From a virus, in IMG/VR virus record IMGVR_UViG_3300045972_000791, positions 3,154 through 67,153 of that record: 64,000 nucleotides of DNA, one strand, 5' to 3'. Shown here piece by piece: positions 9,198-57,412 of the stretch. The notes beneath the pieces are model-generated. The model was given only the letters and a program-made list of their open reading frames with translations, made no database searches and was not told where the DNA came from. Each line of letters opens with the position of its first letter. Position 1 is the first letter of the stretch. The translations under genes and the position numbers were made by a program.

Positions 9198-9209
9198 AAC
9201 AACTTATTA
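9198..9209 (+). promoter_or_regulatory. Late-type promoter AACA-N6-YR
   Basis: AACA ACTTAT TA upstream of 9251. Confidence 0.65.
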
Positions 9210-9250
9210 ATAATATCTATTTAAAATAAGAGAAGATATAAGGAGTTATT

Positions 9251-9475
9251 ATGTTTCAGTGGGTATATAAGTTATTCAACAAAGAAGTAAATAAAATCAA
9301 AGAGGAACTTGATGAGGCCGATAGAGAACTAATTCGAGTTGTAGATGATGTTGTAGAGACTCTTATTAAACTAAACATTGTCAAAGAAGAAGATCTACCT
9401 GAGAATGCTGTTAAAAAACTCAATAGTCGAAGGGATCTTAGAAAAAAATTAATGAGCGAGCTTAATAAAAAGTAG
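9251..9475 (+). CDS. Hypothetical protein
   Basis: AAGGAG Shine-Dalgarno and AACA-N6-TA promoter motif upstream. Confidence 0.7.
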   Translation: MFQWVYKLFNKEVNKIKEELDEADRELIRVVDDVVETLIKLNIVKEEDLPENAVKKLNSRRDLRKKLMSELNKK

Positions 9476-9484
9476 GAGGCTCTA

Positions 9485-10168
9485 ATGAGTCATTTTAAAA
9501 ATACATGTCCTAAATGTGGGAATACATCACAGTGTCGTTGTATGAAATGTGATAAAGTTCAAACTGAAGACCTATGTCTTAGCTGTGAGCAAGATGCAAT
9601 AGTGACTGAAGGTATATTGAATCGAACCTGGATTAGTGTAAAAGAATATTTTGATATGGAGTATTCCTTAGAACGTACAAAGACCATGATCGATGATTAC
9701 TTAGCTGATGGAAGAATTGATGAATTAAAAAACTTTCTTGTAGTATTGAGACTTAATGCAGATAAAGATAATCATAAAGGTTTCTTTAAAAAATTAGGAC
9801 AAATGTTGTTATTTAGCTCACACTATAGACTGAATTATCTTCAATATAAAAGAGAAATATTACCTCTTATATTTTGGGCTGCAAATGAAATATCTAAAGC
9901 TGAAGGAAGAAAATTTGACTTTGAATTCTATTATGCTAGTACTACAGGGCAGCTCAACTCTAGAATGAATGATGTTGAACAGTATAATAAGTTCTATGAT
10001 ATGAATCGTGGAGTCAATCCTAACCTTCAAACATTACAAGTACTCAACTCTATGAATCCAAAAGATAGTGTGGGTTCAGTTGCTAAATTTTCTAATTTAC
10101 ATGCTGTTAGTAATCAGTACTATAATAATCCCGGATTAGCCGCAACTCTTCCATCTAATTTCAAATAA
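9485..10168 (+). CDS. Hypothetical protein with Cys-rich N-terminus, possible head protein
   Basis: CxxC repeats then IVTE-G candidate protease site; GGAGG Shine-Dalgarno. Confidence 0.6.
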   Translation: MSHFKNTCPKCGNTSQCRCMKCDKVQTEDLCLSCEQDAIVTEGILNRTWISVKEYFDMEYSLERTKTMIDDYLADGRIDELKNFLVVLRLNADKDNHKGFFKKLGQMLLFSSHYRLNYLQYKREILPLIFWAANEISKAEGRKFDFEFYYASTTGQLNSRMNDVEQYNKFYDMNRGVNPNLQTLQVLNSMNPKDSVGSVAKFSNLHAVSNQYYNNPGLAATLPSNFK

Positions 10169-10170
10169 AA

Positions 10171-10207
10171 AATAAGCGCATACACCTTTTGGGTGTATGC
10201 GCTTATT
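10171..10207. terminator. Palindrome/bidirectional terminator
   Basis: 16-bp stem AATAAGCGCATACACC between convergent genes. Confidence 0.75.
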
Positions 10208-10210
10208 ATT

Positions 10211-10624
10211 CTAATGTGTTACATCAATGTTTTTATATAACTTTAATAATTCCATTAAATTAGTAACAGTAGCACCTGCAACTGAATTATTAATATGATA
10301 AACATAATAAGTATCAGCTGCGTCTTTATATTCAAATTCAGTAGGGAGTTTACTCTTCCAATTCTCAATTTGAGATAAACCACAATCTAATGATATAAGT
10401 GCTACAGTATAATCTTTACTACGATCAGATATTGAATATACACCATCGATACAGTTAAGTATCCATTTTAAAGTTATCAAGTTATTTTCTAATTCAATAG
10501 CATCAAACTCTTGAACTATCTCTTGGAAGGTGGGGCTATCATCAGCATCACTACCGAGAAGATCATCAGTAAAACTAATTAAGTTAGCTAATAATTCTTT
10601 ATACCTATTATTCACTAGTTTCAT
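10211..10624 (-). CDS. Hypothetical protein
   Basis: 137-aa ORF, end of operon before palindrome. Confidence 0.65.
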   Translation of the reverse strand: MKLVNNRYKELLANLISFTDDLLGSDADDSPTFQEIVQEFDAIELENNLITLKWILNCIDGVYSISDRSKDYTVALISLDCGLSQIENWKSKLPTEFEYKDAADTYYVYHINNSVAGATVTNLMELLKLYKNIDVTH

Positions 10625-11471
10625 TCAATACTCCTCTCAATTTATGCATGTTAACCTCAATCATATGTGAATTAGGCATATCATCTATAACAGTATTACA
10701 TAGACTACACTCATCAATATTAATTGGATGAATATACGATACACTATGCATATCATGACAGTTACAATCCCAATATCCATTATGAAAACGAGTAGGATGA
10801 GTTTCATTTTTACCTACGTTTAGTACTGTTTCTAAATCAAATGAATATTGAGTTATGAATCTAACAGCACTTATAGCATCAGGTACTTCCTGATCATTGA
10901 AGTATTCGACAAACTGCTTACTGAGCTTTTCAAGCTCTGTGAGTTTATCAAACTCACCCCAACCTGGAACTAATCTATCCCATTCTGAATTAATGGCTTT
11001 AGAATTAACCATACTACTCTCTATATCATAGGTGTATCCTACCATATATTTAATAATATCATCTACTTGACGATATCCATCTTTTACTTCAGGACATCTA
11101 TAACGTGACTTACCTGCAACAGCACTCACACGCCACACGAGACCAGATAGATTTGCACCCATAAGAGCACTTCCACCACAATCCTGACCATATCCTTTCC
11201 GCATTTCAGAACTTGCCCAGAAGTATCCATGTTCTCCCATATGGGAACCGTTACTAAGAGTAGTACGCACCTCACCGATAGCAATTCCTACTCCTACAAA
11301 ATTACCACCATAATTAGCTACTCTTATTTGGAATACCTTACCTGGAATTTCATGGAATGTGGTACTACCGGTATATGCTTCTTGTTCATTGTGATAATGA
11401 GATGTAACTTTAAGACCATACTTATCAATAAGTATAAGCATTTCTGTTCTAGCTATATCATGTGCCTGCAT
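10608..11471 (-). CDS. Hypothetical protein with C-terminal YWDCNC...CxxC domain
   Basis: 287-aa ORF with Shine-Dalgarno. Confidence 0.7.
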   Translation of the reverse strand: MQAHDIARTEMLILIDKYGLKVTSHYHNEQEAYTGSTTFHEIPGKVFQIRVANYGGNFVGVGIAIGEVRTTLSNGSHMGEHGYFWASSEMRKGYGQDCGGSALMGANLSGLVWRVSAVAGKSRYRCPEVKDGYRQVDDIIKYMVGYTYDIESSMVNSKAINSEWDRLVPGWGEFDKLTELEKLSKQFVEYFNDQEVPDAISAVRFITQYSFDLETVLNVGKNETHPTRFHNGYWDCNCHDMHSVSYIHPINIDECSLCNTVIDDMPNSHMIEVNMHKLRGVLNETSE

Positions 11472-13260
11472 TAAATATCTCCTTTTTCATATTAGTTATT
11501 CTTTCATAAAGTACTCCTAATTTGAAATTAGGGTCTTTATCAGAGTCTATAAGACTCAATAAACCATCAAGCTCTTTATGTTTTATATTACCGCTAAATT
11601 CTTCAGGATTTTTAACTAATAGTGGTGTAGGAATTTGTAGCAAAGGAGATGCAGCGGTCTTTTCATCTTTAATAGGTAATATACCTACTGAATTAGCGAC
11701 AGCTATGTCTACTAACTCATAGAAGAAAGTTGATTTACCTCTGAATGGTATATGGTTTAGATCTCTCCATATCCTCCAATACTTGCACTCTGTAGTAGTT
11801 TCCTGTCCAAATTTACTGTAATTAACAAAATGTCCTTTATTTTTCTTAACTGCAATAATAGTTCCTGTATTGAATATCTCATTAAAGGAATCTGTTGGAC
11901 ATTTAACTAACACAACATACTGCTCTCCCAATGGACCAATTATCTTCAATGGTATCTTTCCACCATTAAATGTAATCTCTGGCTCTTTCATAGATGTGAG
12001 ATGCCAATGTCCACAATATCCGCACTTATAAGTACGAAGTACTCTATCGGGAAATGTTGCCGCTTTAGCTAAAGCTAGTTCATTACTAGGATACTGAGAT
12101 TTCTTTTTACATGAAAAATACTCTTCCTTTGATTCTTCATCAAAAGGCATCATAGGAAGAAGTTCAATATCATCTTCACTACAAGGATTAACTGTTTCCT
12201 TTATATTTTCATCTATTGTAACTGGATTATAGTCTTCTTCTATAGTAGTGAATATTTTTTCTATCGGAGGACTACTTATTGCCTTCTTTTTACTTATACT
12301 ATGATTATCAGTGGATGTAGTTTTCTTTTCTTTTGGTTTAGGCTTATCTCGAATCACTTTAATCTTAGGTATCTTTTCTTCAATAGCTTCTTCTTCTGGT
12401 TTTTGAAGAATAGTCTTTGATATGTGATTGTCACTAATCTCAAATTTATAATCATTCATATCAAGTATAGGATCATTATCTGACAATACTATTTCATCAA
12501 CTTTTACCTCTGCATTGTGAATTGAGATAAATCCTTTAAATTTCTTTCTCTTAAATGTAGTTGAGTGAAGATAGCTATCAAATTTAGCAACATCACATAC
12601 ATTTGAATTAAGTATCACTTGACTTACAATAATATCAAATAGACAATTATTTAAATGCAACTTAGACTTAGAGAATTTAACTCCAAAGGTTTCTCTGGCG
12701 ATATTCTCGTCACACGTAGCTACATACTTAAGTCTCCTAAGATTCAGTTCTTTATCATCAAACAACAGTATAACTGGAAGATACGAATGTAAACTTGACA
12801 TCTTATTATAAATAACCATTATATAAGATAGTGCATGACATCCAGTTATATCCGTTCCATCGGTATATACCTTTTCTTCAGGAAAGTAATTAAATGCATT
12901 ATCATATTGATGAATGAATTGTCTACTAAAATCAACTCCGGCTTCACCAAGATAATTGACAATACATCCATGTTCGTAATCTAGAGTTGTATCAGGTATA
13001 ATCCGTCTATTAAGGTGCCTGTTACCATCTTTAGTCACTGCCTCTTTCGCTTCAGTCAAGTCAAACTTAGAGATATACTCTAATAGGACTGGCATGTCAT
13101 ATGAATTTGGTTTTAAACTTACATCTAACTCAAGCAAAGATTCCAAACTAACGTCATCTAAATCACTCAGCTTATCGAAAATCTCCTGAGTGTCTATAAC
13201 TGATATATTTGGGAACCATACTGGTAGATGTGAATACTGTTTAATAATTCGTAGATACAT
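11458..13260 (-). CDS. Large hypothetical protein with internal Zn motif (YKCGYCGHWHLTS)
   Basis: 600-aa ORF. Confidence 0.7.
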   Translation of the reverse strand: MYLRIIKQYSHLPVWFPNISVIDTQEIFDKLSDLDDVSLESLLELDVSLKPNSYDMPVLLEYISKFDLTEAKEAVTKDGNRHLNRRIIPDTTLDYEHGCIVNYLGEAGVDFSRQFIHQYDNAFNYFPEEKVYTDGTDITGCHALSYIMVIYNKMSSLHSYLPVILLFDDKELNLRRLKYVATCDENIARETFGVKFSKSKLHLNNCLFDIIVSQVILNSNVCDVAKFDSYLHSTTFKRKKFKGFISIHNAEVKVDEIVLSDNDPILDMNDYKFEISDNHISKTILQKPEEEAIEEKIPKIKVIRDKPKPKEKKTTSTDNHSISKKKAISSPPIEKIFTTIEEDYNPVTIDENIKETVNPCSEDDIELLPMMPFDEESKEEYFSCKKKSQYPSNELALAKAATFPDRVLRTYKCGYCGHWHLTSMKEPEITFNGGKIPLKIIGPLGEQYVVLVKCPTDSFNEIFNTGTIIAVKKNKGHFVNYSKFGQETTTECKYWRIWRDLNHIPFRGKSTFFYELVDIAVANSVGILPIKDEKTAASPLLQIPTPLLVKNPEEFSGNIKHKELDGLLSLIDSDKDPNFKLGVLYERITNMKKEIFNAGT

Positions 13261-13310: not shown

Positions 13311-13532
13311 TTAAAAACAACGTTGGATTTCATCCGTAAATACAACTAACATCTCAGTATGACCGAAAGATTTTTTAAATTTAACAGCTATATTTTCAGT
13401 ACCATCTGATAATGGAATCGTTGACATAACTTCACCTTTAAAATTATGACATTTCATTAAACCAAGCATTTCATCTGTAAATCTAACCTTATCACCAGTT
13501 CTAAAACTAGCTGATTTCTGTGCAGTTGTCAT
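13311..13532 (-). CDS. Small hypothetical protein (SH3/KOW-like)
   Basis: FRTGDKVRF...GEV pattern. Confidence 0.55.
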   Translation of the reverse strand: MTTAQKSASFRTGDKVRFTDEMLGLMKCHNFKGEVMSTIPLSDGTENIAVKFKKSFGHTEMLVVFTDEIQRCF

Positions 13533-14970
13533 CTTTGAAAAATCCTTTCTCCTTGAATTCTATGAAGGGTGTAAAAGTTCCAGTCAATCCTGGATCGCCC
13601 GCTGATGCTGATGCAAGACCCATTTTTCCTATATACGATGGATGAACACCGCGGTATTTAGGGGAAATATCATTCTTAGAACCATCAGCCAATGACTGTG
13701 GACCACGGAATGAATATTTAAGAGCGCAACCAAACAAGTCTAAGTCGTTCACAAGGTTACTATATCTAAGAAGTTTATTACCTTGTAATTTCTTTATTAC
13801 AAATCCAGGTTTTATATTCTTAAATATAGATTTCATATGTTTGAGAGTTACCGTTTTGTTATTCAATAGACGATAAGTGTTTTCAGAGAATCTCATAAGA
13901 ATGGGGTGAATAAGATACTCATTCATTCTCATTCTCTTATTACATAGATCCATACTGTCTGACTTAGATAAAGTATCATAGTTCATTTGCATAAAACGCA
14001 TAATTGCAAATACATCAGCTTTATCTTCATCTGGAATGTCAATAAGATTCTTACGAGTACAGTCGTCTAATACACGTTCTAAGGATATCATAACTCTTTG
14101 TGCTTTATCAAATTGAGAGTTAGTATTCTTAGTAAAGTATCTACCAAGCTTCTTCAACCAGAACTCAGTTGATTCAACTTGTTCCCTTATAAGTCCTTTG
14201 TTAGTACTAATAATTTCATAAAGTGATACTATAAAAGATGCACTAAATGAATTGTCAGGTATATCATTCAGACATACGATCCTAACATTCTTACCTGCTT
14301 TAAATGTGGTGTATCTCGATTCATCTACATCTACATCGCCATCATCTGGAAGGAGTACATCCACATAAGCATCCATTTTGAAGTATTCTATTGTTTTACT
14401 TAATCCAAACTTACTTAGATAATAGTGAAGAACATTCCTTCTGTTCTTAAAGATATCTAATGTCATGAGTCTTCCAGATATTTCTTCTCCAGTTACTGAT
14501 TCTATTGATATAATCTTGTCAGTACGAAATACTATAGGCATCAATAGTGTCTTTAGAGAGAATGTCTTACTTGTTACATATGTTGCTTTATCTATTACCT
14601 GCCAAATAGAGAAGTATTTACTACCATCAATAAGATAGTAAAAGTTATCAACTAGAGCAGGGAATAGCAACTTTAACTCTACATCTTCTGTCTCATCAAG
14701 CTTAGTTAGTTTGAATTTCATTTTGATTAATTGATGACGACTTTCTTCAATCTTATACCTAAAATTGAACTCGTTCGCAATTTCTGTCTCATCAGTTATC
14801 AATTCACAGCCAGTAAACTTAATACCTTCGATTACTTCCAATGCTTTGCTAACATCCTCTAAATATGATAGGATGTTATCCTTCTTACGATAATTCATAA
14901 TAAAATCATGGTTGAACTGCTCAGGGTTCTGACTTTGGTAGTGGTTATACATCTCCTTTAAAACCGTCAC
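13507..14970 (-). CDS. Phage multisubunit RNA polymerase, beta subunit N-terminal fragment
   Basis: FPALVDNFYYLIDGSKY (beta P.m...g.FiiNG), DLCNKRMR (L.NKRiR), SFRGPQSL...YRGVHPSYIGK...GDPGLTG (R.vHpshyGr...G.niGL rifampicin/fork region). Confidence 0.85.
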   Translation of the reverse strand: MTVLKEMYNHYQSQNPEQFNHDFIMNYRKKDNILSYLEDVSKALEVIEGIKFTGCELITDETEIANEFNFRYKIEESRHQLIKMKFKLTKLDETEDVELKLLFPALVDNFYYLIDGSKYFSIWQVIDKATYVTSKTFSLKTLLMPIVFRTDKIISIESVTGEEISGRLMTLDIFKNRRNVLHYYLSKFGLSKTIEYFKMDAYVDVLLPDDGDVDVDESRYTTFKAGKNVRIVCLNDIPDNSFSASFIVSLYEIISTNKGLIREQVESTEFWLKKLGRYFTKNTNSQFDKAQRVMISLERVLDDCTRKNLIDIPDEDKADVFAIMRFMQMNYDTLSKSDSMDLCNKRMRMNEYLIHPILMRFSENTYRLLNNKTVTLKHMKSIFKNIKPGFVIKKLQGNKLLRYSNLVNDLDLFGCALKYSFRGPQSLADGSKNDISPKYRGVHPSYIGKMGLASASAGDPGLTGTFTPFIEFKEKGFFKDDNCTEIS

Positions 14971-15113
14971 ATGAAACCTCCTTATATCGTAATATAAATT
15001 TTTGTTGTCAAATCTTTTCTTTTTAAAGTTTCTCTCCTTTTAGTAAGATATGATACAAGGTAATAATATTCACTTATTTTAACTTTTAAACTGAACTATC
15101 AGTACTTTTTCAT

Positions 15114-15125
15114 AACATACCGTTG
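15114..15125 (+). promoter_or_regulatory. Late-type promoter
   Basis: AACA TACCGT TG upstream of HU. Confidence 0.6.
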
Positions 15126-15178: not shown

Positions 15179-15544
15179 ATGGCAATCGCTAAAAAACCAG
15201 CAGCAAAGGCAGCACCTGTAAAGGAAGTTAAAAAAGCAGCTCCAGCTAAGACTAAGAATGAGTCTTCTAGTACTGGTGATCTTGAGAACAAAGTGTATGA
15301 AGCTCTTGAACTTCCTACCAAAAAAGAAGCTAAGCTTGTAGTTAAAGCAGTTGTAACTGCTATCTGTGAGTTGGTTAAAGAAACTGGCCGTCTTCAGATT
15401 GCTGACTTTGGTATCCTTGGCGTTAAAACCATTGGTGCTCGTACTGGTCGTAATCCTAAGACTGGTGAAGCTATGAAATTGAAAGCTACTAAGACTGTAT
15501 CTTTCAAGACTTCTAAAGCCTTCAAAGATTACGTACGTTCGTAA
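15179..15544 (+). CDS. HU/IHF-family DNA-binding protein with Lys/Ala/Pro-rich N-terminal tail
   Basis: LQIADFG.L.V....ARTGRNPKTGE.MK..A.K.VSFK.SK.FKD.V. Confidence 0.93.
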   Translation: MAIAKKPAAKAAPVKEVKKAAPAKTKNESSSTGDLENKVYEALELPTKKEAKLVVKAVVTAICELVKETGRLQIADFGILGVKTIGARTGRNPKTGEAMKLKATKTVSFKTSKAFKDYVRS

Positions 15545-15552
15545 TAATAAAA

Positions 15553-15587
15553 ATTGTTGAGTAAGCCCATTGGGTTTACTCAACAAT
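15553..15587. terminator. Palindrome after HU
   Basis: ATTGTTGAGTAAGCCC-ATT-GGGTTTACTCAACAAT. Confidence 0.6.
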
Positions 15588-15594
15588 ATTATTA
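15582..15594 (+). promoter_or_regulatory. Late-type promoter (N7 variant)
   Basis: AACA ATATTAT TA, embedded in the 3' arm of a hairpin. Confidence 0.55.
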
Positions 15595-15606
15595 GGAGGA
15601 ATAGAT

Positions 15607-16305: not shown

Positions 16306-16317
16306 ATTTTATTATGA

Positions 16318-16330
16318 AACAAAATTATTA
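16318..16330 (+). promoter_or_regulatory. Late-type promoter (N7 variant) for the capsid gene
   Basis: AACA AAATTAT TA. Confidence 0.6.
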
Positions 16331-16470
16331 GAATTCTACGGGCAGGTATTTGTGAAGATGTACCTTATATATACATTGGGTTTGGGCGAACCCTATGTAT
16401 CCTTTTTAAGTCATTGGATTTGTCAAGGCTATATAAGGGTTCTATCACGTACCACATTTTAGAATGGAGA
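16331..16470 (+). ncRNA. Structured 5' leader of the major capsid mRNA
   Basis: Stems CCTTATATA/TATATAAGG and ATACAT.GGGTT/AACCC.ATGTAT between the promoter at 16318 and ATG 16477. Confidence 0.5.
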
Positions 16471-16476
16471 TAAAAT

Positions 16477-18577: not shown

Positions 18578-18621
18578 TCGTTAACATTTTATTGTCCATT
18601 GTCTTCTCCTTTTTGTAAAGA

Positions 18622-18694: not shown

Positions 18695-18706
18695 AACATA
18701 CTATCA
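18695..18706 (+). promoter_or_regulatory. Late-type promoter
   Basis: AACA TACTAT CA upstream of HNH-terminase. Confidence 0.6.
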
Positions 18707-20284: not shown

Positions 20285-20381
20285 AAATACTATTGGGCCG
20301 TCTGGATGAGAGTTCAGATGATAATCTCTTTAATTGCTGGAACATCCCTATGGGAAAATCAGCAGCGAAAATTCTACTACT

Positions 20382-20393
20382 AACATATCATTA
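20382..20393 (+). promoter_or_regulatory. Late-type promoter inside the intron
   Basis: AACA TATCAT TA upstream of the intron endonuclease. Confidence 0.6.
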
Positions 20394-21193: not shown

Positions 21194-21363
21194 CGTTCAA
21201 CGACTAGAGCGAAAGCTCGTACACTACAAGCTAATGGTAGTGGAAATGGGAGACATCCTAACTCTATGAGAAGGATGAAGATATAGTCTACTCTGCACGG
21301 TAACATGCAGCTGCTAGGAAATTGCTAGCGGGATAGAAGTTGCGACTCTATTCGAATACAAGG

Positions 21364-45076: not shown

Positions 45077-45085
45077 ATATTACCT

Positions 45086-45472: not shown

Positions 45473-45496
45473 GGTTTCTCTTCCTTTTCATTTGAA

Positions 45497-48004: not shown

Positions 48005-48019
48005 TGTTCCTCCTGTTTC

Positions 48020-49530: not shown

Positions 49531-49560
49531 TTACTCCCCCTAACTATAATTTTATAAGTA

Positions 49561-49572
49561 CAATTATATGTT
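49561..49572 (-). promoter_or_regulatory. Late-type promoter
   Basis: AACA TATAAT TG upstream of HNH. Confidence 0.6.
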
Positions 49573-49598
49573 AGGGGGAGTAGTTAATAATACTAAGT

Positions 49599-49608
49599 TA
49601 TAATATGT
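49599..49608 (-). promoter_or_regulatory. Early-type promoter motif ACATATTATA
   Basis: Heads the HNH/sigma-like/primase/RNase H run. Confidence 0.55.
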
Positions 49609-49612
49609 ATAG

Positions 49613-51364
49613 TTATTTTGAGTTCATTTCCATATCAATCAAACCAACTGATACGAATTGACCTGAAGTTATCAGTAGACCAATAATAGAGAATGTTGAA
49701 CGTACAATCTCATAATCTGTTTCTGCAGAGTTGATAATTTCAGTATTAGGGAACTCTTCAAATTCCATTGTCCTAGCATTGAATATAGTCTTCCAATCAT
49801 TACAACAAGCACGTACAATTAAATCAATAGCCTGAGCAGAGTCAGTACCAGTAAGAATACTTGGATGCTTTGCAATAACTTTATCATGTGCAGATTTATT
49901 ATCAATAAAAGAAAGTACTTTACAGAATACTTCTTTAAATGCATCTGCTACAGCATCAATAAGACGATATACTTCCATAGTAGTGAGGAATGTCTTATCA
50001 AAGATTTCATTAGCTAAAACATTTCTAAACTCTTGTTCAGATAGGATCTTAGGGATAATAAGATTTCCACCCATTACAATACCAAACTTGAGTGCTGATT
50101 GACATGCAAATACTGCATCTTCTACAAGAAATTTTTTCGTTTCAATTTCTTGAGGAGTCTCACCACCAACCTTAATAACTACCATACCATCAGATAGTGA
50201 TGCAAGACGATTCTTTAATACTACTACATTAGTATCACGTTCAATATGATCTTCTATTTGGAGAAGCTTTTCTAATTCTCCACGTATAGAATCTATCTTA
50301 GCTGTGATATCTTCCTGACTACCTTTACCACCAAGAAATTTAGTGACTAAATCAGTACCTTTAATTGCAGAGCACTGACCTAAACGATCAAGAGGGAATT
50401 CTCTAAGAGATTCACCTGCAATCTTATTGTAGTAAGCACAACCAATATAGATTGAAAGATCTTCAAATTTAGCAAACGCTTCAGGTGATTCAGTAGCCAT
50501 ATCGATTGCAGCAATTGGCATAGACATGTTCTTAACTTTATTAACATGTAAGAATTCTCTAAAGTTTGAATCATAACCTTTAGCTACTAATAGTAAAGAT
50601 GCTCCCATACCACAAATCTTCTGTATGAGATCACCAACTATTGTCATATCTTCTCCACCTAAAGTACCATTAGTCATAAAAATGAATACATTTTCATGCT
50701 CACATTTAATGCCAGTCTCAGTTGCAGAAGTAGCAAAATACGGATTAATGATACCACGGTTAACTTCAATACCACTAGTTCTTTCATAGTATGTATTAGA
50801 AGTTGAGCCTGATTCTACAGTAATAGAACAATCTCTACCAACTTCAGTAAAGATTTCATGTATCATATCAGCTAATTTAGCATCACTATTAGTTGAAATA
50901 TATGCAACATTCTTAAGGTGATTAGTATCTTCTAAAGAAATAGCACGCTTGAGAATTTCTTCTCTAAGCATATCAGACATGATGTTAAGTCCATCAACAA
51001 CATCTTTAGGAGATAATTCATTACCTGCTGCAGTTACGGCTTTATAAATCTCATTAGATGCAACGACTGCCGAGGTCGATCCATCACCAACACTACGTAC
51101 TAGACGAAAGCTAATACGTTTAAGAAGATCAAGAATAGTTCTAGGGAATGGATGCTTGAAGAAAATTTTACGAAGAACTGAATAACCATCCTTAGTTGCA
51201 AAATGCTGAAGATTATGATCTTGTACAATTGCATGTTTTCCATATGGTCCGAGAGTACTACCTACTGCACCTGCAATGTAATCTAGGGTTTCACCCATCA
51301 ATTTCTTACATTCAACATCATTAATAACATTTGACGAAAATACATTTTCCATAGTTCTCTCCAT
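49613..51364 (-). CDS. groEL: Phage GroEL-like chaperonin
   Basis: STLGPYG, TKDGYSV, VGDGSTSA, IKVGG.T..E......VEDA..A..SA...GIV.GG. Confidence 0.9.
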   Translation of the reverse strand: MERTMENVFSSNVINDVECKKLMGETLDYIAGAVGSTLGPYGKHAIVQDHNLQHFATKDGYSVLRKIFFKHPFPRTILDLLKRISFRLVRSVGDGSTSAVVASNEIYKAVTAAGNELSPKDVVDGLNIMSDMLREEILKRAISLEDTNHLKNVAYISTNSDAKLADMIHEIFTEVGRDCSITVESGSTSNTYYERTSGIEVNRGIINPYFATSATETGIKCEHENVFIFMTNGTLGGEDMTIVGDLIQKICGMGASLLLVAKGYDSNFREFLHVNKVKNMSMPIAAIDMATESPEAFAKFEDLSIYIGCAYYNKIAGESLREFPLDRLGQCSAIKGTDLVTKFLGGKGSQEDITAKIDSIRGELEKLLQIEDHIERDTNVVVLKNRLASLSDGMVVIKVGGETPQEIETKKFLVEDAVFACQSALKFGIVMGGNLIIPKILSEQEFRNVLANEIFDKTFLTTMEVYRLIDAVADAFKEVFCKVLSFIDNKSAHDKVIAKHPSILTGTDSAQAIDLIVRACCNDWKTIFNARTMEFEEFPNTEIINSAETDYEIVRSTFSIIGLLITSGQFVSVGLIDMEMNSK

Positions 51365-51378
51365 AAAATAAAATGTGG

Positions 51379-51390
51379 TAATTTACTGTT
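51379..51390 (-). promoter_or_regulatory. Late-type promoter
   Basis: AACA GTAAAT TA upstream of groEL. Confidence 0.65.
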
Positions 51391-51405
51391 ACATAAAATT
51401 AAAAT

Positions 51406-51441
51406 CTGAATCTGCATACCATCTAAGGTATGCAGATTCAG
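51406..51441. terminator. Palindrome/terminator
   Basis: CTGAATCTGCATACC...GGTATGCAGATTCAG. Confidence 0.65.
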
Positions 51442-51443
51442 GT

Positions 51444-51695
51444 CTATTTTTTCTTAGCTTTTAAAGCCTCTGCATCAAGTGCTTTTTCTCTAGCTCTAGC
51501 TTTAGCTTCAAGCAAACGCTGTTTAGCACTAGCTAGTTCAGATATAAGCCATAAGTCACTTTTCAGAATATCTTCTAATGCCAATTGACCCTCAAAAAGT
51601 TCGAGGACATTGACAATAAAGTCTGATGTCTCTCGCCTAAAGCGAGCCGAAGTGACGATTATGCTTTCTCCATTAGTTTGCTGAAAAGCAAGTTT
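51444..51695 (-). CDS. Start-less ORF, probable -1 frameshift extension of the upstream gene
   Basis: 83 open codons (…DFIVNVLELFEGQLALEDILKSDLWLISELASAKQRLLEAKARAREK…) with no ATG, overlapping the upstream gene end in the -1 frame. Confidence 0.6.
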   Translation of the reverse strand, partial: KLAFQQTNGESIIVTSARFRRETSDFIVNVLELFEGQLALEDILKSDLWLISELASAKQRLLEAKARAREKALDAEALKAKKK

Positions 51696-52867
51696 TCACA
51701 ATCAATATTGATTGCCTCAATTTCATTAGCACAAGCTGCACAAACCATCTTTGGAAGCTGATAGTTTACTTCAAATTTCTTAGCACGCTCATTGATTTCT
51801 TCATTCAAACGATCACCATCAGTTGGTGACAATCTAGATACAATTCTAAGCATTTCATTACGATCTGTAACAGGGAAGAATATTGCTCTTCCTTCATTTT
51901 CTAATTTCTCACTATCTGGAATGAATAGTTGTTTAATGAACAACATCATACCAATGATATTAGAAATATCAGCAATGAATTTAGGATTGAATGCTTTAAG
52001 AAGAATAAGATGATCTGAAAGACTAGGAGTACAAATATCTACTACAATATTAGATGTTGGTAGAAGTACTCTTGAAGTAGTATGTACCATTGAGTTACTA
52101 GCTACATCTTCAGGATTAGATGATTTAGAAATAGAATCTAAATATCCAAATGCAGTTTCATCTTTAATCTGCTGAAGAAGATGAGCACCAATTTTTGCAT
52201 CAATTTTATTTTCACATTTACCACAGGTGATATCAAAATCAGATTCTCCAGGGTATGTTTGAGCGTAGAGACCATACAGAAGAGTTTCTAAGTCATGATA
52301 TGAAGTCATCTTCAACCACTCATCAAACTTAGGTTTAGGAATATTCATTTCAATAATATGATCATATATTGAACGATACAGCTTTCTACGGCTTTCAAAA
52401 GGACTCTCTACCGAGTTAAGAATCCTAATTTTATCTTCAAGACAAAGTGAAGAAATCTTAGCAACATATGCTGATTGAGGGCATACAATCATAAATGTTG
52501 ATTTGTTGTTAAGAATCTTTTCAATAATACCACTTCTACCCATAGCAGATGTAGTATTGATCTGAAGATTAGTTAAATCAATATTTGGATTACCTTTAAG
52601 AATAACTTTTGTTTCATGTTTCTTTTCTTCAACTACAGGTTCTTCTTCTGGACTTTCAAATGATACCTCTTCAATTTTAGGTACTTCTGAGAAAGCATCT
52701 TCAATAGACTGATCAACTACTGGTTCAGGTAAAGTTTCAACTACAGGTTCTACCATTGGTTCAGCAACAACTGCAGCTGCGGCTTGTCTTAATGCTGCTG
52801 GAATTTGAAAACGACTTGGATCTTGAGCTTCTACGACATTGTTTTCTTCACTCATTTCTCTCTCCAT
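51659..52867 (-). CDS. Baseplate hub/tail assembly chaperone-like protein
   Basis: DLETLLYGLY..TYPG...ITC.KC and C-terminal CAAC...LLF pattern; next to a gp25-like gene. Confidence 0.6.
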   Translation of the reverse strand: MEREMSEENNVVEAQDPSRFQIPAALRQAAAAVVAEPMVEPVVETLPEPVVDQSIEDAFSEVPKIEEVSFESPEEEPVVEEKKHETKVILKGNPNIDLTNLQINTTSAMGRSGIIEKILNNKSTFMIVCPQSAYVAKISSLCLEDKIRILNSVESPFESRRKLYRSIYDHIIEMNIPKPKFDEWLKMTSYHDLETLLYGLYAQTYPGESDFDITCGKCENKIDAKIGAHLLQQIKDETAFGYLDSISKSSNPEDVASNSMVHTTSRVLLPTSNIVVDICTPSLSDHLILLKAFNPKFIADISNIIGMMLFIKQLFIPDSEKLENEGRAIFFPVTDRNEMLRIVSRLSPTDGDRLNEEINERAKKFEVNYQLPKMVCAACANEIEAINIDCENLLFSKLMEKA

Positions 52868-53301
52868 TAATGAATTAAAATTTCCGAGGTAACTCTCGAA
52901 GTAGATGTATCTTTCTTAAGCACTATACCAATAAACTTTTCATCAGTCTGACTACCCAATTCAAATGCAACAATTATAGAATTTGTTATATTCTCATTAT
53001 ATGTATTCATATTTTCAACAATAGTGTTTTTAATGTACTGACTACTTGCAGGTACCCATTTACTTACTTGCTCACTAATTTTTGATCTTAAATCAGATAG
53101 TGTAGCATCGTCTAAAAATTCAAAATCATATTTTTGAACTCCTATACCTAGCGAGTAGTTATTAGGATAAGTTCCAGGCTCAGTTAGTAATAATGTTTGT
53201 AGACGAAGAGCTAAAGCTCTCACACCAGTTTCATTATTAACTATATTAAAATCTGTATTAATCTCATATGTTGGCTCTATTGCTAATGGCGAATCTGACA
53301 T
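52867..53301 (-). CDS. Baseplate wedge protein (gp25-like)
   Basis: L..LLLTEPGTYP....LG.G...Y.FE. Confidence 0.75.
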   Translation of the reverse strand: MSDSPLAIEPTYEINTDFNIVNNETGVRALALRLQTLLLTEPGTYPNNYSLGIGVQKYDFEFLDDATLSDLRSKISEQVSKWVPASSQYIKNTIVENMNTYNENITNSIIVAFELGSQTDEKFIGIVLKKDTSTSRVTSEILIH

Positions 53302-53337
53302 ATTATCCTCCGTTTCAATATATTTGTTAATATTGTT

Positions 53338-54072
53338 TTATTTAGGTAATAGTCCCAAAGATCTATTAGTTACTGCTCTTTTACCAAAAAGTGATATTGC
53401 CTTTTTGTCATATAAAATTGCTAATTTTAGAGGATCATTTCCTTGCGCTATATGAATGGTTTTACCTTCATAAATCATATTTGACATAAATTTAGAACCA
53501 TTTGGTTTGTTAACTCTAAAAACGCCTTTATATCCAGTAACTCTTACTTTGTTATTAGCTTCAGTTATTTTAGCAGCTCTCATATTACAATTAAGATGAC
53601 TAAATTCTATATTGCTTAAATCAAAATACATTTCTTTCGGATTAGGTGCATTCATCCAATCAATAATGTGATCTATTGATAGATCTGTAATTGTCAGTTC
53701 TTCCCCACATCTATAACATTTTGTATAATTTAAAGCACTAAGCATATTATATATATCATAATAATTTTTTGAAGTTTTTTTATTATTTGCTTGCAGATTT
53801 TTTTCTCTCACTTCATCAATTTTTTTAAGAGCTTTATTAATTCTTTTAGTAATTGAACTAATTCTTGTTGTATCAGTAAATTGTCTACATACATTCTCTA
53901 AATTTTTTAATATAAACAATTCAGGATGTATAAATTCTACTTCCTTATTTTCCTCTTCAAGTTTATTAATAAGTGCATTTTTAATATCTCTTATTAAAAT
54001 ATATCTGGCTTTTCCATAAGACATTCCTAGTTTTTCTTTTTTAAGATCTTCATATTTTTCTCTATAATTCAT
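53338..54072 (-). CDS. HNH endonuclease with C-terminal AP2-like domain
   Basis: CYRCG...SIDHI...N....H..CN; TGYKGV...A..YDK.A..LFG..A.TN. Confidence 0.85.
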   Translation of the reverse strand: MNYREKYEDLKKEKLGMSYGKARYILIRDIKNALINKLEEENKEVEFIHPELFILKNLENVCRQFTDTTRISSITKRINKALKKIDEVREKNLQANNKKTSKNYYDIYNMLSALNYTKCYRCGEELTITDLSIDHIIDWMNAPNPKEMYFDLSNIEFSHLNCNMRAAKITEANNKVRVTGYKGVFRVNKPNGSKFMSNMIYEGKTIHIAQGNDPLKLAILYDKKAISLFGKRAVTNRSLGLLPK

Positions 54073-54095
54073 AATTCCCCCTAATTTCAGTTAAT

Positions 54096-54160
54096 TAACT
54101 ATTTGTTATAAAAGTCAATTAAACTAGAATTAGAAAGAATTTTATTGAAACATATAATTG
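54096..54160. promoter_or_regulatory. Divergent pair of AACA-N6-YR promoters
   Basis: Minus 54096-54107 AACA AATAGT TA; plus 54149-54160 AACA TATAAT TG. Confidence 0.6.
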
Positions 54161-54195
54161 TATAAAGTCACATTATAGCAAGGGGTATTGATCTC

Positions 54196-54942
54196 ATGAA
54201 CAATTACAAGTGCCCTATCTGCTCTAGGGGATACATAAACACTGATGGATTATTTCACCATGTAGATAAAGATCATCACGATTCTCTACAGGGAATGACA
54301 AGTAAACAATACTGTTTCAATCGTAAGTATAAAATTTCAGGTAGAAATGGTAAAAGCGTTATATCTAAAAAGCCTACTCCTTGGAATGAAGAATTAGGTA
54401 GATATGAACGTTTTGCTAACGATGCTGAAAGACAAGAATATCGTAAGATATTTCTTGAACGTATGCAGAAAACTTATGGAAAAGATACTCTATTAAATGA
54501 TCCTGATGTACAAAAGAAGATGTTAGCTAATAGAAAGATATCTGGAATATACAAATTTCGTAATGGTAAAGAAGTAACTTATACTGGTGATTATGAAAGA
54601 CATTTCTTAGAAGTAATGGATACTTTATTAGAATGGTCACCTGATGACTTATTTGTACCTGCACCACAAGTTATCGATTATCATAATCCACGCACAGGTA
54701 AGATGAGTTTTTATATACCAGATGCGTATATTTCATCACTCAATATGATAATTGAAATAAAATCTGAAGAAAATAAACACTATAGAGAAAGAGACCTTGA
54801 TATTGAAAAAGCTAAAGATGCTGCAACTATTAAGAAGGGATATAGGTTTGTCAAAATATTTGATAAACAGTATCATGAATTATTAAATGCAGTTATTGAG
54901 GCAAGAAATAGTCAATGGTCTAATGGAGATATTTATGATTAG
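54196..54942 (+). CDS. C2H2 zinc-finger plus PD-(D/E)xK nuclease (TnsA/T4 gp4-like)
   Basis: CPIC...H....H; YE..FL; FYIPDAY...IIEIKS. Confidence 0.7.
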   Translation: MNNYKCPICSRGYINTDGLFHHVDKDHHDSLQGMTSKQYCFNRKYKISGRNGKSVISKKPTPWNEELGRYERFANDAERQEYRKIFLERMQKTYGKDTLLNDPDVQKKMLANRKISGIYKFRNGKEVTYTGDYERHFLEVMDTLLEWSPDDLFVPAPQVIDYHNPRTGKMSFYIPDAYISSLNMIIEIKSEENKHYRERDLDIEKAKDAATIKKGYRFVKIFDKQYHELLNAVIEARNSQWSNGDIYD

Positions 54943-55198
54943 TGAATTCTTAGAAAAGAATGGATTACGTAGTACTGTATTAGAAGCAAATGAAATGAGT
55001 ACTGTTGAAAAACATATTGCTGAGAAAAACGCTCTTAATAAGAAACATAAAAATGAAGTAGATTCAATTATAGAAAAGTACAATCATAAAGATGCAGATG
55101 AGTATAAAATGCATCGTGAACTTTCACCAGTACATGAAAAACATAATAAAGAAATTGAAGAAATGGGAATACGACATAAAAAAGAAAGGGGTCTATAA
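54935..55198 (+). CDS. Small charged head-protein-like ORF
   Basis: Start re-assigned to ATG 54935; VLE-A motif. Confidence 0.5.
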   Translation: MISEFLEKNGLRSTVLEANEMSTVEKHIAEKNALNKKHKNEVDSIIEKYNHKDADEYKMHRELSPVHEKHNKEIEEMGIRHKKERGL

Positions 55199-56070
55199 TG
55201 AGTAACATTCAAAACCTTAGTAAAAGATGTATCGAGTATGCTGAAAAGGGTTTATTCGGTATGCTTGCAGAACATCTTAAAGTTGAAAAGAGTAGTATAG
55301 AATCTGATCTATCAGCTCTTAATGAAACTGTAACGGATACTGTTAAACGTGACAAAGCATATCAGGTTGTAACTGAAAATATTTGCACGCTAGCTAATAT
55401 TGCAGATATTCCTAGCTTGAAACGCCATCGTTTAGCATCAAATGCAACTGCTGCTCTTCGTGAAACAGTTATGCTTTTGATTGAAAGTCAGGCTAAACTG
55501 AGTGAAAAAGAAGTTGCTGGCGATATTCTTAATGAATCATTCAGTATGGAAAATTGTTTATTTCTAAATGAAGCTAATCCATATATTACTCATTTTAAAA
55601 ATGAAATTAAAATTCATCCTAAAGCTAAAGGTTCTATGAAGAATCTTACTCATGATGAACGCAAACAGTTCTTTAAAGATGTAGCCGTTAAATGGCATGC
55701 AAAAAAGAAAGAAGCTGCAGGTAAAGAAGCAACTGATCGTCAAATAAAAATTGATAATCATAAAAAAGAAGACTTAAATATATCTGAAGGTTCACATGAT
55801 ATAGCTATGGCTGCACTAAATAAAAGAATTGAAACATTAGAAGACCAAGCAGATGGTTTAGATGTTAAAGGTAATCCAGAATCAAAAAAGAAAGCATCAC
55901 AAATTAGAGAAAAAATTAAAGAATTAAAGGAAGATGTATCTATTCTTAATGAAAAAACTAAAGGTAATCTTGAAGCTCTTAAGAAAAGTGGAAAGATGAA
56001 GACCTTTGAAAAAGGTACAGACAAAGTTGTAGATAAAGATAAAGATAAAAAAGATGATGAAAAAGATTGA
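55198..56070 (+). CDS. Prohead core/inner-head protein
   Basis: Repeated LxE sites (LNE, LRE, LIE, ISE) separating charged modules. Confidence 0.55.
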   Translation: MSNIQNLSKRCIEYAEKGLFGMLAEHLKVEKSSIESDLSALNETVTDTVKRDKAYQVVTENICTLANIADIPSLKRHRLASNATAALRETVMLLIESQAKLSEKEVAGDILNESFSMENCLFLNEANPYITHFKNEIKIHPKAKGSMKNLTHDERKQFFKDVAVKWHAKKKEAAGKEATDRQIKIDNHKKEDLNISEGSHDIAMAALNKRIETLEDQADGLDVKGNPESKKKASQIREKIKELKEDVSILNEKTKGNLEALKKSGKMKTFEKGTDKVVDKDKDKKDDEKD

Positions 56071-56120
56071 GTGAAATAGATATGTGACTGGTACGTTACA
56101 TACTGAAATAGGGTAATAAA

Positions 56121-56153
56121 AATAGGCTTACCCCTCATAAGGGTAAGCCTATT
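56121..56153. terminator. Bidirectional terminator
   Basis: AATAGGCTTACCC...GGGTAAGCCTATT between convergent genes. Confidence 0.7.
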
Positions 56154-56155
56154 CT

Positions 56156-56839
56156 CTATGTTAACTGCGCTTGTTTATTAAATGGTCTTACAACTGTTTT
56201 GAGAAAATAATCTACTCTCTTTAAATATTTTTGTGGATCACGATTTATTCTTACATTACGTGGTCCAGCATTATAACATAGTAATGCAGATTTTCTTCTC
56301 TTTTCCTTGTTTTTAACAGAAGCATAATTTTGGTGAAGTATCTCAAAATAGTATGCTCCCATTCGGACTGCAAAGTCCGAGTCAGTTAGAAGACGTTTCT
56401 TCAGTTGGGCATCTGTATAAGTACCTAGCTCTGGATGTGCAGCTAATACGGCTCTACAGGCAGGGAGTTGTGTTTGCATCTCTCCTAATGATGCTCCTCC
56501 GTCTCCAACTTTATCAAGCAATCCTGCGTGTGTTTCAGCAAGTGCGATAGCTTGAGTATCTTCAGGGTGGCCCGTTTCCTTGCCCACTGAATGGGCTAAA
56601 CGTAGAATTTTAGTTTGTTCATGAGTCAAACCTAATTCATGGCCTGCAAGTTCAACCTTCCCATTGGGCGGTGATACTGTCCCTGTACATCGCTGTAGGT
56701 CAATGACCACAGCTGGTTTGATTGAAGCACCAGCAATAATTATTGTTAAACTGATAATTAATGATGATACAACAACCGCCAGTAGTGCTTTAGTCACCTT
56801 TTTGATAACAGGTACTTCAGCAACAGTGTGTCGGTTCAT
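56156..56839 (-). CDS. SLT-family lytic transglycosylase with N-terminal transmembrane anchor
   Basis: AIALAET (catalytic Glu), SLG.MQ, GAYY, YNAGP; hydrophobic stretch ALLAVVVSSLIISLTIIIAG. Confidence 0.8.
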   Translation of the reverse strand: MNRHTVAEVPVIKKVTKALLAVVVSSLIISLTIIIAGASIKPAVVIDLQRCTGTVSPPNGKVELAGHELGLTHEQTKILRLAHSVGKETGHPEDTQAIALAETHAGLLDKVGDGGASLGEMQTQLPACRAVLAAHPELGTYTDAQLKKRLLTDSDFAVRMGAYYFEILHQNYASVKNKEKRRKSALLCYNAGPRNVRINRDPQKYLKRVDYFLKTVVRPFNKQAQLT

Positions 56840-56842
56840 ATC

Positions 56843-56905
56843 TTACACTCCTTTGTTGTGTTGACTCTTGCAGTATCCATCTTTTTTGGACACTACAAAA
56901 ATCAT
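56843..56905 (-). CDS. 20-aa leader peptide (uORF)
   Basis: AAAGGAGGC-ATG; MIFVVSKKDGYCKSQHNKGV*, stop 3 nt before the muramidase ATG. Confidence 0.4.
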   Translation of the reverse strand: MIFVVSKKDGYCKSQHNKGV

Positions 56906-57011
56906 GCCTCCTTTCGTATTTACTAGGCGTGCTTTGTTGGATTTGCTACGCCAGATATAAAATCGTTCTTTATTATTTGTTAATTAAATTTATTTGAAAA
57001 GGATGCTAAAA

Positions 57012-57365
57012 ATGGGAATCTTACAGACTGTCGTTGAGAAATTACGTATTGCTGCACCCACGATTAAACGTTCACCAAAATGGCCTACTGTACGTGCAGC
57101 TCATATTAAGAAACATGGTAAATGTGCAGCATGCGGTTCCACTAAAACTTTAGAAGTTCATCATATTGAGCCATTCCATCTTAATCCTGATTTAGAGTTA
57201 GATCCTAAAAATCTAATTACTTTATGTGAAAGTACATCAAATGGAGTAATCTGTCATTTATTCATTGGTCACAGCGGTGATTACAAAGCTTATAATCCAG
57301 AAGTATTAGTTGATGCTAAAATTGCTCTTGATCGTATTACTCATCGTCCATACGATAAGAAGTAG
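57012..57365 (+). CDS. Small HNH endonuclease
   Basis: W..VR......CAACG....LEVHHI.P......LD..NL.TLC....CH...H. Confidence 0.85.
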   Translation: MGILQTVVEKLRIAAPTIKRSPKWPTVRAAHIKKHGKCAACGSTKTLEVHHIEPFHLNPDLELDPKNLITLCESTSNGVICHLFIGHSGDYKAYNPEVLVDAKIALDRITHRPYDKK

Positions 57366-57400
57366 ACAATGTATTCCTCTTTTTATTTGAAATTATATAC

Positions 57401-57412
57401 AACATAGTAATA
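57401..57412 (+). promoter_or_regulatory. Late-type promoter
   Basis: AACA TAGTAA TA upstream of 57449. Confidence 0.6.

Follow-up and report, generated by a model that had tools for sequence, protein, structure and literature searches.

AR9-type late promoter motifs in a 64-kb fragment of an uncultured, probably uracil-DNA jumbo phage from a pond

The non-virion RNA polymerase of Bacillus phage AR9 is described as recognizing late promoters of the form 5'-A(-11)ACA-6N-T-A/G(+1) (PMC5312081; PMC7598289; PMC9209446), and as reading them on the template strand, as 3'-UUGU-5', where thymine at -11 or -10 abolishes recognition (PMC9209446). A 64,000-nucleotide (nt) stretch of DNA, hereafter the window, raises the question of whether the same code is used by an uncultured jumbo phage from a pond, and whether the DNA that carries it contains deoxyuridine in place of thymidine. 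The window comprises bases 3154-67153 of one 67,153-base virus record (IMGVR_UViG_3300045972_000791), whose completeness is estimated by CheckV at 26%, and its GC content is 30-37%. In it, the motif AACA, followed after six free nucleotides by a pyrimidine and a purine (AACA-N6-YR), recurs upstream of genes on both strands.

These sites are very probably promoters for a polymerase of the gp226 type, gp226 being the sigma-like subunit of the AR9 enzyme. The complete statement, that they are AR9-type late promoters in an AR9-like jumbo phage whose DNA contains deoxyuridine, is in our judgment likely. The argument starts from four direct observations, namely, the motif itself, the specificity of its orientation and spacing, its recurrence among relatives, and the presence of two polymerase subunits whose pocket residues are conserved. 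It places a known system in a distant new member, and nothing previously established is overturned.

Kinship with AR9 is apparent throughout the record. Our own gene calls on the 67-kb contig, scored by codon usage and ribosome-binding sites, gave 81 genes and 42 gaps of at least 12 nt, and 35 of the 81 predicted proteins match AR9 DNA (KU878088.1; local tblastn, E <=1e-3, counted as distinct query proteins). Among the homologues are gyrase B, dCMP deaminase, gp105, HU, the capsid protein, the split terminase, tail sheath, portal, a two-part family-B DNA polymerase, prohead protease, RNase H, primase, gp226, g227, GroEL, and baseplate and virion proteins. Two gene neighbourhoods, primase-gp226-g227-GroEL and HU adjoining the gene for the N-terminal beta fragment (beta-N), are common to AR9 and the window. 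The predicted major capsid protein (16477-18129, plus strand) matched 21 records in a phage collection, all of them AR9/PBS1-type Bacillus phages (39% identity), Listeria LPJP1, Bacillus BpSp, Staphylococcus S6-like phages (~36%), or Yersinia phiR1-37 (30%); the relatives outside the AR9/PBS1 type, including the S6/MarsHill-like phages, lie at 30-38% identity. Uracil-containing DNA is reported for AR9, S6, and phiR1-37 and presumed for MarsHill-like phages (bioRxiv 10.1101/2020.12.14.422802; PMC5312081). Megablast of 5.5 kb of the window against phages gave no match. The fragment belongs to the AR9-like, presumably uracil-DNA, jumbo phages.

Orientation and spacing of the AACA-N6-YR motif

All 18 N6 sites that an initial annotation of the window had listed, nine on the plus strand and nine on the minus strand, are present. 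Its further claim that they occupy nearly every intergenic gap was too generous: an N6 motif lies on 21 of the 40 gene-upstream gap sides (21 of 36 for gaps of at least 30 nt), the tight form on 17 of the 40, and the first 9 kb of the window have no late motif on any gene-upstream gap side. The enrichment test that the same annotation had proposed yields opposite answers at two scales. Over the whole window the loose form is not enriched (169 occurrences vs 173.7 expected, a count reached by 69 of 100 shuffles), and the tight pattern AACANNNNRTYR shows a mild excess (41 vs 28.4; 1 of 100 shuffles). The late signal is visible only when gene orientation is taken into account. Within the sense gap sequence, defined as gap DNA reading towards a downstream gene start (4,750 nt; the remainder is 3,708 nt), AACA-N6-YR occurs 24 times against 6.2 expected and AACA-N4-RT-YR 19 times against 1.06, counts that none of 500 first-order Markov simulations reached in either case. 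Gaps read in the other orientation hold 3 sites where 2.6 are expected, a division of 24 to 3 between sense and antisense.

The spacing is equally specific. N7 spacing is not enriched in sense gaps (7 vs 6.2; 208 of 500 simulations), and the N5 count (11 vs 6.3; 31 of 500) is not significant. Three N7-spaced sequences had been offered as promoter variants; the sequences are indeed there, although as a class they have no statistical support, and the excess of the tight N7 form AACA-N5-ATTR (3 vs 0.58; 20 of 1000 simulations) is suggestive only. Individual N7 promoters are still conceivable because AR9 itself has late promoters with other spacings or non-consensus bases: its consensus is given at 94 of 118 non-early transcription starts, and another 17 have such altered forms (PMC5312081).

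Positions that were free in the search are themselves constrained: 19 of the 24 sites have A at -3, and 20 have T at -2. The start region, A(-3) T(-2) T/C(-1) A/G(+1), is more constrained than that of AR9, where A(-3) is found at 63 of 104 sites and T(-2) at 52 of 104; its best form is AACATTTTATTA. The ATTA ending of the window sites also recurs in AR9 itself, at the sites preceding g115 and the tail sheath gene g126. Logo positions -29 to 0 hold at most 0.36 bit each across the 24 sites, that is, no -35-like element. An unguided scan of 180,224 dyads (4-mer, N0-10, 3-mer) ranked AACA-N4-ATT third (13 vs 1.83; Poisson p 7.5e-8), below two dyads formed by ribosome-binding sites and start codons. 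From the predicted +1 to the start codon the 19 tight sites measure 13-138 nt, with a median of 34. At least two of the 24 loose matches look like chance occurrences, one in intron-like terminase sequence (21302, plus strand) and one overlapping a ribosome-binding site 7 nt before a start codon (56846, minus strand).

The same counting pipeline recovers the code in reference phages. AR9 (250 kb, deoxyuridine) has 108 AACA-N6-YR sites against 33.9 expected, with flat counts at N7 (29 vs 34.6) and N5 (34 vs 33.9). Upstream of genes, AACA-N6-TR is enriched in a 50-kb stretch of phiR1-37 (60-110 kb; 20 vs 4.5, 0 of 300 simulations) and in 50 kb of S6 (8 vs 3.1; 5 of 300), both of which have deoxyuridine DNA, and is not enriched in 50 kb of the thymine phage phiKZ (4 vs 3.5; 139 of 300). 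The oriented count therefore separates AR9-type phages from a thymine phage with split polymerases. Passages of the literature on related phages state that no late consensus was obtained for phiR1-37 (PMC5312081) or, with MEME, for MarsHill (bioRxiv 10.1101/2020.12.14.422802), in contrast to the window, where the motif is visible by eye. The proposal of an AR9-type promoter code has held up well: the motif matches the published consensus, its count signature recurs in AR9 and is missing from phiKZ, and the two proteins that form the AR9 promoter pocket have homologues encoded in the window.

Candidate promoter-reading proteins and their relatives

The first of these is a homologue of AR9 gp226, the sigma-like specificity subunit (511 residues; 46469-48004, minus strand), which aligns with gp226 over 467 residues at 27% identity (BLASTP, E 4e-41) and whose sole match among solved structures is the AR9 subunit (PDB 7s01_A, E 2.2e-33). 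The second, a homologue of gp105, the N-terminal beta fragment of the non-virion RNA polymerase (487 residues; 13507-14970, minus strand), is 39% identical by tblastn and matches PDB 7s00_c at E 2.7e-103. The initial annotation had spoken of split RNA polymerase subunits; one gp105-like beta fragment and the sigma-like protein are on the contig, and the plural overstated the case.

As described in passages of the AR9 structural work, the -10 uracil lies between gp226 I207 and gp105 R363, its C5 is 3.9 Å from the C-beta of gp226 V206, the V206G variant accepts thymine, Y210 stacks on the -9 G, discrimination at -11 is achieved by DNA backbone conformation and no side chain, and V206 is called absolutely conserved among 12 homologues (PMC9209446). 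The 2.1bis helix of the window protein, YSDKIIWSYLKNL, retains 9 of the 13 residues of its AR9 counterpart, YSDVVIWTYLKNM, with I207, W208, Y210, L211, K212, and N213 kept and V205K and V206I among the changes; S245 and Y246 are kept as well. The gp105 homologue preserves R363, which is Arg in 78 of 82 aligned homologues.

A word-index protein search with gp226 found only three relatives, and a full HMMER search (E <=0.001, 50% clustering) gave 303 family representatives. Among 135 aligned members of at least 380 residues, AR9 included, position 206 is V in 73, I in 12, T in 9, P in 7, G in 5, R in 4, S in 4, and another residue in 21, and W208 is conserved in 133. Ile206 is common to the window protein and its two nearest homologues, P0002 and P0003 (54% and 53% identical). 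The small-residue members at 206 (Gly 5, Ser 4, Pro 7 of the 135) are natural candidates for thymine-tolerant enzymes, and the natural variants of this residue constitute a ready-made set for testing how discrimination between uracil and thymine evolves.

The motif accompanies the protein in metagenomic relatives. As a single query against viral contigs the gp226 homologue found no relative; an alignment query of gp226 homologues found 15 IMG/VR loci with GC contents of 24-66%. The sense gaps of all 15 contain AACA-N6-YR above expectation, with simulation p <=0.05 in 12, and the sums over the 15 loci, which include near-duplicates (L011/L012 and L015-L018), are 102 vs 31.8 expected for N6, 22 vs 31.5 for N7, and 26 vs 32.4 for N5. 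Position 206 in these loci is V in eight, T in six, and S in one. Scanning with a beta-N homologue alignment revealed a closer relative, L024 (47% identity), whose sense gaps hold 13 sites against 2.75 expected. Three of the 13 read AACATTTTATTA, a 12-mer also present at window positions 35642 (plus) and 43631 (minus). Of five new loci tested, one, L031, has no late-motif excess (4 vs 3.0). Early-type sites, considered below, number 3-4 in each of the five new loci against 0.2-0.6 expected (at most 8 of 300 simulations). At the level of the strain, contigs of two pond runs aligned to 35001-55000 yielded only identical-strain pieces and fragments of unrelated organisms, with no usable variation at the motifs.

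Four of the alignment-query loci (L007-L010, GC 57-66%; records G001 and G002) represent complete high-GC jumbo-phage genomes that encode gp226 homologues with Val206 and have AACA-N6-YR enriched upstream of genes. No ThyA, ThyX, or dCMP deaminase was found in these complete genomes, and in one of them a marginal match to the dUTPase family may represent a dCTP deaminase. These features hint at deoxyuridine genomes in phages of high-GC hosts.

Late promoters of such phages have been described, in the passages concerned, as difficult or even impossible to predict unless transcript data are available (PMC7598289; PMC5312081; bioRxiv 10.1101/2020.12.14.422802). A simple orientation-aware count nonetheless recovers the AR9 code in the window, phiR1-37, S6, and 15 metagenomic loci, and not in phiKZ. 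A full-text literature search, which returned mostly listings and is no proof that the approach is unpublished, found no report of such oriented-count detection. The window itself gains a promoter map of ~20 late and ~5 early predicted sites, each with a predicted start nucleotide. For specialists this may be of less use than the by-product, namely, a code recoverable by oriented count in phiR1-37, S6, and many metagenomic jumbo phages that lack thymidylate synthase and differ widely in GC content. We would give about even chances to the broader proposition that the AACA-N6-TR code and genomes without thymidylate synthase are shared by hundreds of uncultured gp226-encoding jumbo-phage lineages spanning GC 24-66%; if it is true, deoxyuridine genomes are far more widespread than the few cultured examples suggest. 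Distinctive features of the window phage are Ile at the uracil-selecting position, an ATTR start element under tighter constraint, and the lack of a canonical site at the capsid gene.

Uracil or thymine, and other readers of the motif

By analogy with AR9, a phage-encoded, rifampicin-type-independent multisubunit non-virion RNA polymerase would carry the gp226-like protein as its sigma-like subunit, melt the DNA, and recognize 3'-UUGU-5', complementary to AACA, at template-strand positions -11 to -8, in a pocket that the gp226 2.1bis helix and the beta-N fragment form together. RNA would start at the purine 7 nt past AACA. A second element, ATATTAT-N6-G, would mark early genes and presumably be read by the virion-borne polymerase, and early and late signals in tandem would provide continuous expression as in AR9. 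In the DNA, thymidine would most likely be replaced by deoxyuridine, which the AR9 enzyme requires at -11 and -10. We infer transcription start at the sites, template-strand recognition, and uracil in the DNA from this comparison.

The comparison is close in several respects: AACA at -11 to -8, N6, T/C at -1, A/G at +1, and no -35 element, together with the same enrichment signature by the same test and gp226 and gp105 homologues with a conserved 2.1bis helix and R363. It is distant in others, since identity is only 27% (gp226) to 39% (gp105, capsid), Val206 is replaced by Ile, the window has no Ugi homologue at the syntenic place, and the phage is of pond origin and known from sequence alone. 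phiR1-37 and S6 likewise share the enriched AACA-N6-TR and the absence of ThyA and ThyX. phiKZ resembles the proposed system, as far as the accounts available describe it, in having a split beta/beta' polymerase, a fifth, sigma-like subunit (gp68), and a short start-overlapping element (late T(-3)ATG(+1)), and it differs in reading thymine double-stranded DNA, in having no AACA element, and in encoding ThyA. Pseudomonas phage PaBG, which has a sigma-70-type factor, was set aside as unrelated.

Evidence on the genome chemistry comes largely from the wider family. ThyA and ThyX were each found in none of five CheckV-complete gp226-family genomes and in none of three further records (38-84% complete), two of which, L014 and L024, share a metagenome with the closest relative. 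Both enzymes are also absent from AR9, phiR1-37, and S6, and phiKZ has ThyA (E 5e-52) and no ThyX. A dUTPase-family match occurs in one of the five complete genomes and is marginal (22.8 bits), with none in the three partial records or AR9; dCMP deaminase is present in three of the five. The initial annotation had called for checks on the absence of thymidylate synthase and dUTPase and on the presence of a dTTPase or an inhibitor of uracil-DNA glycosylase (UDG). ThyA, ThyX, and dUTPase are all missing from the contig, which is weak evidence as the contig is only 26% of the genome, and Pfam and PHROG scans of 50 window proteins, many of which have no family, found no thymidylate synthase, dUTPase, UDG, or the UDG inhibitor Ugi.

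The missing inhibitor belongs to a set of observations that weigh against AR9-type promoters in deoxyuridine DNA. The AR9 Ugi gene (g104 region) has no match among the window proteins (tblastn, E <=1e-3), and the syntenic place between HU and beta-N has no open reading frame. The dCMP deaminase to which the initial annotation had pointed is indeed encoded (7730-8248, minus strand; AR9 g221 homologue, tblastn 32%, Pfam PF00383 E 1.4e-18), yet it is not diagnostic of deoxyuridine DNA because phages with thymine or hydroxymethylcytosine, such as T4, also encode it. Only two of the five non-virion polymerase subunits were found on the contig (tblastn against AR9), and no canonical N6 late site was found upstream of the major capsid gene. 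The window sequence is contained in three pond metagenome DNA runs of unspecified library method, despite reports that deoxyuridine DNA hampers standard library preparation (bioRxiv 10.1101/2020.12.14.422802), and no public run that contains it is an RNA run, which leaves promoter function to be inferred. In the pocket, Ile stands at position 206, where the Val of AR9 homologues was called absolutely conserved, and AR9 K375 aligns with a His in the gp105 homologue. This His was dismissed as evidence for altered specificity: the column varies among the 82 homologues, AR9 carries one extra residue immediately ahead of it, and the adjacent column is K or R in 58 of the 82 and K in the window.

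The competing account that survives best retains the same promoters and polymerase family and places them in thymine DNA, or DNA with another 5-substituted pyrimidine, with a pocket (Ile206, His at the K375 column) that tolerates the methyl group. Apart from residue 206 itself, it can draw on the Ile206 of P0002 and P0003, the lack of a Ugi match, and the recovery of the sequence from three pond runs. We consider it unlikely nonetheless. Ile has the C-beta branching of Val plus one carbon, and it should exclude the thymine methyl at least as well, because the engineered tolerance of V206G came from removal of the side chain; discrimination at -11 in AR9 comes from the DNA backbone; all known relatives have deoxyuridine or are presumed to; and ThyA and ThyX occur in none of eight complete family genomes, with no thyA, thyX, or dUTPase in the available 26%. 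A specific version, in which the window represents a natural variant lineage, marked by Ile206 and the extended ATTR start, that reads the AR9 template code in thymine or other non-uracil DNA, seems to us no less doubtful; if true, it would uncouple the promoter code from the deoxyuridine genome. The evidence, comprising the capsid relatives, Ile206, and the missing thymidylate synthases of the complete family genomes, leans to deoxyuridine, and the genome is probably substituted with it. The earlier remark that either outcome would be notable was overstated, deoxyuridine being the expected reading for a member of the AR9-like clade.

A real regulatory signal with a different reader, either a host sigma factor using a -10-like element or a phage DNA-binding regulator, is very improbable. 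The AT-rich 3' half of the motif (TATTA, TAATTG) does resemble a -10 hexamer, and TTGAC precedes two sites; against this, there is no information upstream of AACA and hence no -35-like element, the same enrichment occurs in gp226-encoding loci with GC contents of 24-66% and hence in very different hosts, phiKZ shows no enrichment, and the motif is identical to the experimentally mapped AR9 consensus. A bacterial sigma-70 promoter (-35 TTGACA, ~17 nt, -10 TATAAT) was rejected by the flat upstream logo and the sharing of the motif across that GC range. Sigma-70 resembles the AR9 model, in the descriptions available, in its use of a sigma2-like domain to capture bases flipped out ~10 nt before the start; it differs in acting on the non-template strand, usually with a -35 element too, whereas the AR9 model involves the template strand and the window has no -35 information. 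Chance, on the grounds that AT-rich intergenic DNA will often contain AACA followed by YR, is compatible with the flat whole-window count of the loose motif (169 vs 173.7) and is rejected as a negligible possibility by the oriented simulations (0 of 500), the lack of enrichment when gaps are read the other way or the spacing is N5 or N7, the bias of the free positions in the logo, and the unguided dyad scan.

Individual sites, early-type elements, and neighbouring genes

On the plus strand, candidate late promoter AACAACTTATTA (9198-9209) places +1 42 nt before gene 9251-9475, and AACATACCGTTG (15114-15125) lies upstream of the HU-like gene 15179-15544. The gap before the HNH endonuclease gene 18732-19535 has two sites, a putative promoter AACATACTATCA (18695-18706) and, 138 nt before the gene, a second motif AACATTTTATTG (18583-18594) absent from the earlier list. 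Further predicted promoters are AACATATCATTA (20382-20393), ahead of 20417-21193, a homing-endonuclease-like gene interrupting the terminase gene; AACAAAGTATTG (24677-24688), upstream of the tail sheath gene 24755-27139; AACATTTTATTA (35642-35653), upstream of gene 35687-36409 (AR9 g142 homologue); AACAGATTATCA (39008-39019), upstream of the DNA polymerase catalytic subunit gene 39041-40963; and AACATATAATTG (54149-54160), upstream of gene 54196-54942 (AR9 g233 endonuclease homologue). A possible internal promoter, AACATTCAATTA (27085-27096), lies in the 3'-terminal part of the sheath coding sequence, 58 nt ahead of gene 27154-27918, and AACATAGTAATA (57401-57412), which has A at -2 and fits the loose form only, precedes gene 57449-58501 (AR9 g220 homologue).

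On the minus strand, candidate promoters precede the DNA polymerase exonuclease-part gene 33847-35586, an AR9 g132 homologue (AACATAGTATCG, 35612-35623); the virion-protein gene 38534-38884, an AR9 g153 homologue (AACAATCTATTA, 38950-38961); the HD-domain protein gene 40999-41955 (AACATCCTATTG, 41984-41995); the prohead protease gene 42784-43569 (AACATTTTATTA, 43631-43642); the cold-shock-domain gene 43707-43910 (AACAAATAATCA, 43971-43982); the GroEL-like chaperonin gene 49613-51352 (AACAGTAAATTA, 51379-51390); and the HNH-domain gene 53338-54072 (AACAAATAGTTA, 54096-54107). Site AACAGTTTATTA (38468-38479) abuts the ribosome-binding site of the HNH endonuclease gene 37643-38455, a second motif absent from the earlier list, AACAATTCATTA (38970-38981), shares the gap of the 38950 site, and AACATATAATTG (49561-49572) heads a run comprising 48718-49530, the g227 homologue, the gp226 homologue, and primase. 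A weak loose match, AACAAAAATTTA (14995-15006), 25 nt before the gp105 homologue, is uncertain.

The N7-spaced variants are likewise uncertain as promoters: AACAATATTATTA (15582-15594, plus) follows a hairpin and abuts a ribosome-binding site, AACAAAATTATTA (16318-16330, plus) lies in the gap that precedes the major capsid gene (16477-18129), and AACAAATATATTG (53316-53328, minus) is upstream of gene 52867-53301. The gaps of the capsid gene and the preceding gene (16306-16476 and 15545-15606) have only N7-spaced AACA(A/AT)ATTATTA, whereas the AR9 capsid gene has the N6 site AACAAAAAATTA.

In a recurrent layout (e.g., 38456-38533, 41956-42049, and 51353-51443), a GC-rich terminator-like hairpin is followed within ~10-30 nt by a late-type motif, an arrangement that suggests separate termination and renewed initiation for every gene or short operon.

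The early-type element was sought with a consensus derived from the 34 annotated early or unlabelled promoter features of AR9, AAATATATATTAT with G six bases on. Window sense gaps contain ATATTAT-N6-G six times against 0.53 expected (0 of 500 simulations), and ATATTAT with N5 or N7 spacing to G once each. The element is shorter than that of AR9, (A/C)ATATTAT, and ACATATTAT-N6-G is identical at three minus-strand sites (3684, 6263, and 49593). All five promoter-like sites described here are on the minus strand: 3684-3697, 29 nt before gene 3299-3655; 6263-6276, 29 nt before gene 5938-6234; 9203-9216, 30 nt before the run that starts with 8664-9173 and continues to the dCMP deaminase gene; 15056-15069, 86 nt before the gp105 homologue; and 49593-49606, in tandem with the late site 49561 ahead of the run holding the gp226 homologue. 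The last two arrangements are as in AR9, for which gp105 is given as an early gene and continuously expressed genes, gp226 included, as having early and late promoters in tandem (PMC5312081). The minus-strand run from 9173 down to gyrase B has early-type sites only (9203, 6263, and 3684) and encodes ligase, Ku, and dCMP deaminase. Its ATP-dependent DNA ligase (4397-5251, minus) and Ku-like end-binding protein (6329-7129, minus) compare with an NAD-dependent ligase and a Ku homologue in AR9.

Several neighbouring genes are of interest in their own right. Neither AR9, Pfam, nor PHROGs yielded a match for several large proteins, of 600, 351, 343, and 290 residues (11458-13260, minus; 30265-32360, minus; 55198-56070, plus). 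The gene for the terminase large subunit is in two pieces (19532-20383 and 21340-22536, plus), separated by the endonuclease gene 20417-21193 with its own late-type promoter (20382); the interruption looks like an intron or homing-endonuclease insertion, and the AR9 terminase is annotated as joined from five pieces. Four further HNH endonuclease genes (18732-19535, plus; 37643-38455, minus; 53338-54072, minus; 57012-57365, plus) include two close paralogues (PHROG 374, E ~1e-75), and a late-type promoter immediately precedes three of the four genes (18695, 38468, and 54096). As with AR9 g132 and g152, two genes encode the family-B DNA polymerase, one for an exonuclease-containing part (33847-35586, minus) and one for a catalytic part (39041-40963, plus); they lie 3.5 kb apart on opposite strands, each with a late-type promoter. 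Convergent with the catalytic gene, and also with a late-type promoter, is the HD-domain protein gene (40999-41955, minus; PF13487 HD_5, E 1.1e-28), whose product could, speculatively, be a nucleotide phosphohydrolase relevant to pool control. The cold-shock-domain protein (43707-43910, minus; 67 residues, PF00313, E 5.8e-27), with the late-type promoter at 43971, lies in a stretch of several-fold higher summed metagenome-contig depth, to which cold-shock gene fragments of other organisms map.

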